Assembly (NCBI GenBank): GCA_963709405.1
Contig: CAVPXM010000050.1
Coordinates: 15,311 to 79,310 of the forward strand
Origin: an uncultured Nitrososphaerales archaeon
Lineage (GTDB): Archaea > Thermoproteota > Nitrososphaeria > Nitrososphaerales > Nitrososphaeraceae
Reading direction: 5' to 3'
DNA: 64,000 nt
Part shown: piece by piece, positions 29,706 to 30,540 of the stretch
Layout: each line of letters opens with the position of its first letter
How positions within the stretch are numbered: the stretch's first letter is position 1
Made by a program: the position numbers and the translations under genes
The notes under the pieces: model-generated
What the model was told of the DNA's origin: nothing
The model's database searches: none
Seen by the model: only the letters and a program-made list of their open reading frames with translations

Positions 29706-29813
29706 CTAATTCAACGCTACTCCCGCGTGTGCTGCCTGTGTTCCTGTCGCAACTACTATTCCTAATCCACCGGCAACGAGAGCCCCGATCATGGCTAGTA
29801 ATTTCTTTGCCAT
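29706..29813 (-). CDS. 35-aa secreted peptide precursor (signal peptide + GVALN)
   Basis: MAKKLLAMIGALVAGGLGIVVATGTQAAHAGVALN*; basic n-region, hydrophobic h-region, AHA cleavage motif; TATA box about 21 nt upstream. Confidence 0.75.
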   Translation of the reverse strand: MAKKLLAMIGALVAGGLGIVVATGTQAAHAGVALN

Positions 29814-29832
29814 TATATGACAACGTATAGGA

Positions 29833-29848
29833 TATTATATAGGGTTTA
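29833..29848 (-). promoter_or_regulatory. BRE/TATA-like promoter of the 35-aa peptide gene
   Basis: Minus strand reads taaaccctatataata about 20 nt before the ATG, consistent with a leaderless archaeal transcript. Confidence 0.55.
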
Positions 29849-30540
29849 TGACAAAAGTCCAACAAGGTTCGATAATGCCGAACAGTATAGCGATCAGCAT
29901 ATTTATTTATCGATTTACAGATTTATTCTGTATCTTTAACTGTTAAAGCATGGGATAATGAGGAAAGTCGTCTACAAATATATCAGAATTATTTTTGCTT
30001 GCTTAAATGTGAAAGGCTATTACATGACTTCAATTTGATTTTTTCCCAATGAATTTGAAAAAGCTCAAAGAAGATCTATAACCTGAATGAGTAAATAAAG
30101 TAAACAAGAATTGAAAGGTGAGGATGATAAATCTAACAAGTAGCTGACTAACTATCTACATAACTAATAAAACATAACATAGTATAAGATCAAATGAATA
30201 ACGAACTAGATTGATGGGATCATAATACCATTATTATCTATTTAGAAGAAGTACAATAAAATGATGATAACAATAATCCGATCCGATTATGTACCTTACG
30301 TAGATCCATCTTTCGTGCTCTAAAAGACTATAGATCGACAAATTGATAAATACAAAATTCAGAAAGTTAGAATGATGATAATAATTGTGAGTAATGAATC
30401 TACGCACTATGTAAACTTGAATCACTGCCTATCATAACTCATATGTATAATCCCATTTCTTGTAATCTATGTTTGTGGGCAACTAAACCGAATATTACAA
30501 ATACCACCTTCCCCAAATAATACGCGATAGTATTGATGCT

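Follow-up and report, generated by a model that had tools for sequence, protein, structure and literature searches.

In the precursors of the Bacillus Phr and phage AimP peptides an N-terminal export signal is followed by an active peptide of 5-6 residues at the extreme C-terminus. The enterococcal peptides iCF10 and iAD1 and the streptococcal SHP are encoded by open reading frames (ORFs) of about 21-23 codons that resemble a signal peptide and nothing more, their last 7-9 residues being the active ones; these peptides are the hydrophobic, signal-like parts themselves, and their systems comprise the Eep protease, the PptAB exporter and adjacent PrgX or Rgg sensors. In microcin C precursors MccB turns the terminal Asn into a peptidyl-nucleotide. 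Very small proteins of yet another kind are CydX, KdpF, AcrZ and MgrB, which are 30-50 amino acids (aa) long, consist of one hydrophobic helix and are often missed by annotation. The present analysis concerns a 35-aa ORF on the minus strand (29706..29813, stop included) of a 64,000-nucleotide stretch from an uncultured Nitrososphaerales archaeon, to which we refer as the window. An earlier note, made from the letters of this stretch alone, had proposed that the ORF is an archaeal signalling-peptide gene which consists of a signal peptide and the C-terminal pentapeptide GVALN.

The passages of PMC4873490 devoted to them describe RRNPP peptides as shorter than 10 aa, unmodified, secreted and re-imported by Opp. 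MccA peptides, in the part of PMC4010828 concerned with them, are 7-56 aa long and of very different lengths, their one shared feature being a C-terminal Asn. As to archaea, the portion of PMC12240190 that deals with these organisms gives the quorum-sensing signal of Methanosaeta as a carboxylated acyl-homoserine lactone and that of Haloferax volcanii as an unidentified small molecule of at most 3 kDa that is resistant to proteinase K. The literature searched yielded neither a ribosomally encoded peptide signal for any archaeon nor a description of the family to which the ORF of the window belongs.

This ORF is a member of a large, previously undescribed mini-gene family of Nitrososphaeraceae. 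When 101 genomes of Nitrososphaeraceae were searched by tblastn, 24 matched at E<=10 and 12, with full-length matches as read from the result table, at E<=1e-3; in the window's genus five of the six genomes matched, three of them with 8, 9 and 12 matches at E<=10. A profile search of a collection of 5.8 billion proteins returned 346 proteins at E<=1e-3, a search free of a word index among 1.84 billion representatives returned 214 clusters (50% identity) at the same threshold, and a hidden Markov model (HMM) of the family collected 86 ORFs in 57 loci. Among the 120 proteins listed out of the 346, the name is 'hypothetical protein' wherever one is given, with one exception; 102 of these 120 are 32-38 aa long, and 116 end in Asn. 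The same terminal residue is present in 116 of the 138 cluster representatives that were not among the proteins seen earlier. The four of the 120 without it are, by inspection, three stop-loss forms that keep Asn at the usual end and one form resembling a frameshift. The search profile itself includes the Asn column, which brings a small bias towards Asn amounting to a few of the 40-90 bits. At the first 40 loci phmmer matched 44 small ORFs at E<0.1 and 30 of these end in Asn; the other 14 comprise three unrelated two-helix proteins of 70 aa, one ORF with a different tail of 54 aa, three in which the aligned Asn is extended by 1, 4 or 10 further residues through stop loss, and seven that diverge earlier and look decayed. 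Family copies in visible decay are found at loci L004, L026, L034, L038 and L039. Homologues thus exist and are nearly all short, and the multiplicity, conserved length and conserved terminal Asn which the earlier note had named as support for its proposal are all present.

The family appears to be restricted in its distribution, since in a profile search of 301 genomes from the whole class full-length matches in small frames were confined to Nitrososphaeraceae, and the matches from the sister family were partial ones within frames of 40-1535 aa. Its hosts include metagenome-assembled genomes (MAGs) of Nitrososphaeraceae and one MAG of Candidatus Nitrosocosmicus; most metagenomic members carry no taxonomic label, and the counts include related genomes, which are non-independent samples. 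Results for loci L012, L037 and L086 derive from the unpublished genome G076. No Pfam, NCBIfam or PHROG model reached its curated cut-off (best E 0.0095-4.5), and neither the PDB sequence search nor the ESM Atlas gave a usable relative. A viral origin was considered and rejected, as no relative is encoded at any of the 222 pattern matches found in viral contigs and the PHROGs gave no significant match.

The manner in which these ORFs vary indicates that the mini-gene is a real protein-coding gene under selection at the protein level. Of the 86 ORFs 69 end in Asn, 56 of those are unique and 47 of these have the GG pair at least 11 codons from the start; on this set the ratio of nonsynonymous to synonymous differences (pN/pS) was pooled by the Nei-Gojobori method over 19 independent greedy nearest-neighbour pairs. 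It was 0.29 in the hydrophobic core (16 codons), 0.43 in the c-region (four codons of the A-x-A site) and 0.56 in the four variable codons of the tail, pN being 0.316 in the tail versus 0.128 in the core. The codon for the terminal Asn in the 47 ORFs is AAC in 33 and AAT in 14, and the stop is TAA in 19, TGA in 15 and TAG in 13, so what is constrained is 'Asn, then stop' and no particular DNA word. In the window's genus five copies were aligned; their alignable part begins about 45 nt ahead of the ATG, with the shared promoter block CCTATATAATATC(A/C)TATA, and ends with the stop codon. Four of them are intact; their last 13 codons, TGTQAAHAGVALN, differ solely at synonymous sites, and their leaders differ at several residues. 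The fifth copy of this subgroup has Gly31Arg and a lost stop. As the immediate neighbours differ between these copies and the alignment is limited to the stretch from promoter to stop, the conserved unit is the promoter plus the ORF.

The anatomy of the peptides is well supported as precursor-like by their sequences. The layout is M-[KR]-K, the hydrophobic core AIIGALIAGGLGI, an A-x-A site and a variable tail, usually of five residues, that ends in Asn; an alignment of the window peptide with 119 proteins gives the consensus xxKKILAIIGALIAGGLGIAxxSxxPQAAHAGxxxN. In these 120 sequences G15, G16 and A30, the Ala at -1, are invariant, and K4, A7, I8, I9, A11, I13, G18, I19, A28 (at -3) and N35 are conserved in at least 90%. 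The -2 residue varies (H/E/N/S/D/Q/T), as expected for a signal-peptidase-I site, and Pro, Ser or Thr stands ahead of the site in most members. With a basic n-region, a hydrophobic h-region, a polar c-region and Ala at -3 and -1, the family leader has, judged by these features, the textbook layout of a class I signal peptide. The tail is composed of G or A, a hydrophobic residue (Arg in one array), two variable residues and Asn, so the A-x-A site and the terminal Asn are kept and the intervening 3-4 residues vary, in agreement with what the earlier note had anticipated; read by eye, tails fall into two types, G-x-x-[L/F/M]-N and A-[L/F/M]-[S/T]-x-N. Proteins P0161, P0234, P0244, P0254, P0214 and P0124 have tails of 8-14 residues, still Asn-ended, with exactly two Cys spaced as CxC, CxxC or Cx6C, which makes them candidates for disulfide-looped variants and fits an extracytoplasmic position of the tail. 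Other export classes do not describe the leader. The class III motif of prepilins is [K/R]-[G/A] right before the hydrophobic stretch; by inspection the archaeal type IV prepilin motif is absent here, as the basic residues are followed by I/L/F-L/F-A and not by G/A. A class II lipobox is likewise absent, the leader being without Cys and the LP_plasma and LPAM_1 models far below their cut-offs.

In the window copy this layout can be followed residue by residue through the translation MAKKLLAMIGALVAGGLGIVVATGTQAAHAGVALN, which is exactly the sequence that the earlier note had written down. The span 29706-29850 given there covers the ORF together with its promoter. All elements of the gene lie on the minus strand. 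The positive n-region M1-A2-K3-K4 occupies 29802..29813, and the h-region L5-A22, LLAMIGALVAGGLGIVVA, with the G15-G16 pair, 29748..29801. The c-region T23-A30 (TGTQAAHA, 29724..29747) ends in A28-H29-A30 as the candidate signal-peptidase-I site. The tail G31-V32-A33-L34-N35, the predicted released GVALN (29709..29723), is unchanged in the four intact copies of the genus, and the TAG stop (29706..29708) stands right behind Asn35. On the coding strand the TATA box TATATAAT lies at 29841-29834 with a gap of 20 nt to the ATG start, close to the 21 nt that had been estimated, and it is kept in four of the five aligned copies; by the archaeal rule for the spacing between TATA box and start, 20 nt is consistent with a leaderless or near-leaderless transcript. 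The T-rich tract reported downstream is a T5 run (29671..29675), 31-35 nt past the stop and a candidate archaeal oligo-T terminator. The ORF is also visibly richer in GC than its surroundings, as had been remarked (0.53 in 29700-29799 vs 0.30-0.39 in the flanking windows of 100 nt). The locus is present in other soil metagenomes too, on contigs from four DNA runs, with one population variant within the ORF; this is 29760 T>A, carried by a single contig of run X10 and by reading a synonymous change from GGA to GGT at Gly18. In the promoter region (29815-29860) one contig of run X8 (record 13) has 11 differences and a 1-nt insertion, and the other contigs of that run are identical to the window there; the diverged contig is probably a second copy or strain.

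Elsewhere in the family some genes stand in same-strand tandem arrays, with eight copies at L031, five at L051, four at L053/L054 and three each at L050 and L057. Within an array the leaders are alike and the tails different, for example GLAMN, GFALN, GMQMN and GSALN at L051. Single or first genes have a TATA-like box about 25-35 nt ahead of the ATG; inside arrays the spacers are 10-20 nt long, with a Shine-Dalgarno-like motif of the GGAG(A/G) type 6-10 nt ahead of the next ATG, and T-runs are found behind single genes and behind the last genes of arrays. P0001 and P0121 are two units fused through the loss of the intervening stop. An IS605 OrfB/TnpB-type gene is situated at L053 (5284-6414, plus strand), about 5 kb from the four-copy array.

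The family resembles Phr and AimP in its short precursor with a predicted N-terminal export signal, in the short C-terminal peptide (predicted here) and in paralogues with different peptides; it differs in the lack of sequence similarity and of an adjacent TPR/RRNPP receptor at the copies examined, and it has instead an invariant terminal Asn, polycistronic arrays, an archaeal host and no members found on viral contigs. Unlike in Phr and AimP, there is no pro-segment between the signal site and the peptide, so a single cut would suffice. With MccA the family shares the C-terminal Asn, whereas MccA has no signal peptide and is modified in the cytoplasm by an adjacent ThiF-like MccB, for which no linked gene was seen in the family. 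In contrast to iCF10, iAD1 and SHP, the tail comes after a canonical A-x-A site, and the genes have no partner beside them. CydX, KdpF, AcrZ and MgrB are, by comparison, usually single-copy, lie beside the complex they serve and have neither a conserved A-x-A site nor an invariant terminal residue. Ordinary Sec signals and anchors of ammonia-oxidising archaea are alike in the basic N-terminus, the GG core and, in some, the A-x-A site, but there a folded domain follows and here just about five residues. Weak profile matches in other ammonia-oxidising archaea are in fact such N-terminal signal or anchor segments of longer exported proteins, a DsbA-like protein and proteins of 171-174 aa from other genera among them, and these segments also carry the GG core, which is consequently not specific to the peptide family. 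In these proteins, as in the long form described next, a leader of this type appears to serve as a usual export signal.

Longer relatives of the mini-gene are rare. In two genomes of the window's genus a 157-aa protein has the family leader ahead of a larger helical domain, and it was seen solely in this genus, the short form being the rule across genera. It is found at L022 (632-1105, minus strand), L023 and L026, where it is frameshifted, and as P0226; after AAHS it continues as AAALNGFNDW... into a helical domain without a Pfam match. Loss of a stop may have joined a peptide gene to an ORF downstream of it and so produced the long form. That the window copy is a truncated long form was rejected: the leaders are 69% identical, and tblastn against the window's genome aligns residues 1-35 of the long form to the ORF and then gives an essentially random gapped extension past the TAG. 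The earlier note had itself raised the possibility of a longer protein with a premature stop, and the window has no similarity to the long form beyond the TAG.

The neighbourhood of family genes was surveyed by clustering ORFs of at least 80 aa within 4 kb at the 57 loci, several of which are redundant or near-identical pairs. A type I phosphoribosyltransferase was found at 13 of the 57 loci, a dienelactone-hydrolase-like (DLH-type) alpha/beta hydrolase at nine, a protein of about 275 aa with an N-domain that reads as AbrB-like and a C-terminal receiver at seven, and a protein of about 280 aa, whose ribbon-helix-helix match falls short of the Pfam cut-off, at four. Transferase and hydrolase genes flank the peptides in several genera (L006/L046, L007, L009, L061/L062 and L064). 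Their order varies; for example, the transferase comes first at L006, L007 and L008, and the peptides do at L005 and L031. The ancestral home of the family looks, from these arrangements, like a place between the two genes. At the Nitrosocosmicus MAG locus HSP20 and a second alpha/beta hydrolase lie upstream. The loci with the longest flanks, L044 and L067, showed unrelated neighbours: a nucleotidyl transferase, a short-chain dehydrogenase, DUF899 and an alcohol dehydrogenase. The AbrB-like proteins form a response-regulator family with reversed domain order, whose N-terminal AbrB/SpoVT-like segment (by reading, with no Pfam match) precedes the C-terminal receiver; the family is often situated next to peptide genes, and L012 1224-2081 (+), L065 1248-2069 (-) and L045 3307-4125 (-) are examples of it.

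Both the transferase and this regulator were considered as dedicated partners and rejected. The best orthologue of the transferase in the window's genome (G000; 4.83 Mb, 100 contigs, 91% complete) is on contig C83 without a peptide, the window itself being on contig C50, and the transferase is likewise peptide-free in the complete genomes G001, G014, G032 and G043. The N-domain of the regulator has no match in G000 and occurs in 13 of the 101 genomes, of which just G065 and G076 are peptide-positive; in five regulator-positive genomes the profile gave no peptide match, an empty answer which shows nothing. As the transferase occurs without peptides and the regulator is not co-distributed with them, neither is taken for a dedicated partner. 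The recurring sensor neighbours that the earlier note had named as support are at most weakly represented: the regulator lies within 4 kb of the peptides at seven of the 57 loci, but the two do not go together across genomes. Its statement that no RRNPP/TPR receptor is adjacent holds, since no such protein was found in Pfam scans of the window and of neighbours at related loci or in the clustering of the 57 loci. ThiF (PF00899) matches of G000 are on contigs C5, C96 and C37, and none is on the window's contig or among the recurrent neighbours.

Beside the window copy are a FAD-linked oxidase, a universal stress protein, PPK2, two glyoxalase-fold proteins and an MFS transporter; any link to stress drawn from the universal stress protein and PPK2 would be speculation. 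The region 27.6-29.9 kb looks like an island of small exported proteins. About 480 nt downstream of the peptide gene and on the same strand, 29101-29229 (-) encodes a 43-aa ORF, MNLKALLLIVTIVMTVAAVEIVSASAPVQAHHSGSHGHGHAGH, in which a signal-peptide-like leader is followed by a His/Gly-rich tail of 13 residues, possibly a secreted metal-binding peptide; it has homologues at E<=0.01 in one of the 100 other genomes (G065, 65% identity), and a degraded copy with two stops is on contig C36 of G000. A 96-aa ORF with a signal peptide at 27876-28166 (+) contains the stretch HRNHHHNGHHNNHH and a low-complexity tail rich in Gly, Ser and Arg, and is overlapped by ORFs in other frames. Another signal-peptide-bearing ORF, of 47 aa at 27613-27756 (-), ends in the Cys-rich CNKCDIHC, and 28280-28717 holds a 145-aa ORF without a Pfam match. 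Convergent with the peptide gene is a 52-aa ORF at 29453-29611 (+) that has two CxxC pairs and appears zinc-ribbon-like, with Pfam matches below the cut-offs.

The explanation that we put first, at a probability somewhat short of an even chance, is that the gene encodes a precursor for the Sec pathway and signal peptidase I from which GVALN is released outside the cell. Such a precursor would be self-contained and rely on housekeeping machinery: the whole peptide would be inserted post-translationally with its N-terminus inside and its C-terminus outside, and one of the two archaeal type I signal peptidases of G000 would then cut after Ala30 and set free extracellular GVALN. Paralogues would release other 4-6-mers, and some of them longer tails with two cysteines. 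The tail, which keeps its sequence within a subgroup and changes from one paralogue to the next, would be the active part that bears specificity, most plausibly as an extracellular signal, and its invariant terminal Asn would serve an unlinked receptor or uptake system as the point of recognition. That the peptide is exported, cut, released and used as a signal is inferred here from sequence features. The genome contents are permissive only: G000 encodes two archaeal signal peptidases I (TIGR02228, on C30 and C38) and one Opp/Dpp-type binding protein (SBP_bac_5), the gene of which is on a different contig from the peptide gene. Prediction of a complex between the precursor and the signal peptidase I of G000 gave a score close to zero, which is no verdict either way. 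Signalling would be the most natural purpose for a product of this kind. A fuller version, by which the peptides are pheromones of an archaeal ribosomal-peptide signalling system, with one Sec-exported, Asn-ended 4-6-mer per gene released by signal peptidase, tandem arrays and lineage-specific tails as 'pherotypes' of soil ammonia oxidisers and an unlinked receptor recognising the free C-terminal Asn, is, like a signalling role as such, rather unlikely.

A number of observations weigh against release of the pentapeptide. The hydrophobic core, with its 18 residues, is rather long for a signal that is cut off and could be a membrane anchor; a signal peptide that is discarded would not ordinarily be better conserved than the tail, as this core is; and the pN/pS of 0.56 in the tail is that of a relaxed and not of a diversifying sequence. 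No dedicated receptor, histidine kinase, dedicated transporter or modifying enzyme co-occurs with the genes in the window, at related loci or in the clustering of the 57 loci; the recurrent neighbours are present in a minority of these loci and all four are absent beside the window copy, and regulator and peptides each occur in genomes that lack the other. Within G000 the window copy is an orphan singleton: tblastn and the profile found no other, nor did an HMM scan of 85,689 frames that run from stop to stop and have at least 28 aa, in which the one further match (E 0.12) was a transmembrane stretch inside a longer frame. Finally, neither tblastn nor the profile found the family in the complete genomes G001, G014, G032 and G043 or in the near-complete G012 (20 contigs), and as it was not found in the complete genomes searched there is no experimental system at hand.

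The chief rival, which we regard as a serious though rather less than probable alternative, is an uncleaved single-pass mini membrane protein, that is, a permanent N-in/C-out anchor whose face of small residues (A7, G10, A11, A14, G15, G16, G18) packs against itself or a partner and whose short PQAAHAG..N tail is shown on the outer face. Small single-pass proteins that bind membrane complexes, such as CydX, KdpF and AcrZ, are common in bacteria, and the core of 18 residues would suit an anchor, as would its standing as the best conserved part, with G15/G16 invariant, seven more positions conserved to at least 90% and a pN/pS of 0.29. However, the strict A-x-A with a free middle residue and Pro, Ser or Thr before it is the signature of a signal-peptidase site and needless for an anchor; arrays with divergent tails, a patchy distribution and frequent decay are unusual for the subunit of a complex; no conserved membrane partner gene was found in the neighbour census or in the flanks of L044 and L067; and the GG core, as it recurs in the export segments of longer proteins that are unrelated, is not necessarily a specific interface. 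The conserved leader, variable core and invariant terminal Asn also match the logic of RiPPs (peptides made by the ribosome and then modified), by which the leader would guide an enzyme and the terminal Asn would be the site of chemistry, or the products would be bacteriocin-like agents. Tandem multi-copy arrays, tails with a Cys pair and a phosphoribosyltransferase as the commonest neighbour (13 of 57 loci) point in this direction, and so does the terminal Asn by which MccA peptides are defined in the relevant part of PMC4010828. Yet a ThiF/MccB-like gene is missing from the window's contig and from the recurrent neighbours, no YcaO, radical-SAM, lanthipeptide or C39 ABC-transporter genes were seen near the copies, the phosphoribosyltransferase also stands without peptides in G000 and in four complete genomes, most copies, that of the window included, stand alone, and a Sec-type leader would remove the tail from cytoplasmic enzymes; a modified or antimicrobial precursor of this kind is quite improbable.

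If the leader itself were the active part, as a membrane-active toxin or as the source of a pheromone cut from the signal peptide in the manner of the enterococcal sex pheromones, the tail would be a processing handle. The high conservation of the hydrophobic part would then be explained; a central GG could favour intramembrane proteolysis, as in substrates of site-2 protease and signal peptide peptidase, and tandem small hydrophobic peptides are typical of some toxin families. This leaves the invariant terminal Asn and the GVALN conserved in the subgroup unexplained, identical cores of paralogues would give no specificity, so that variant arrays would be pointless, and the flanks hold no conserved antisense or antitoxin-like element, similarity being confined to the stretch from about 45 nt upstream through the stop; we consider the leader a very improbable product. 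That the ORF is no functional gene at all, being either an ORF by chance or what is left of the 5' end of a truncated 157-aa long form, could be argued from the singleton status of the window copy, the long form with a 69% identical leader in the same genus and the decay of several family copies, but hundreds of relatives of the same length, the synonymous excess, the conserved promoter block, the lack of long-form similarity past the stop and the synonymous 29760 T>A variant make it extremely improbable.

From all these results the interpretation of the earlier note is partly supported. Whatever its function, the family is an abundant and well-defined set of genes of about 35 aa that is annotated only as 'hypothetical protein', with an unusually clean design, a signal peptide and almost nothing else, and with an obligatory C-terminal Asn as an unexplained rule. 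A secreted pentapeptide, if the sequence features are read correctly, could be the first peptide signal known in archaea, and, since pentapeptides are easily synthesised, testing this signalling hypothesis would cost little. Nitrososphaeraceae are dominant soil nitrifiers, and an exchange of peptides among them, if true, could explain density-dependent or kin-dependent behaviour in nitrification.

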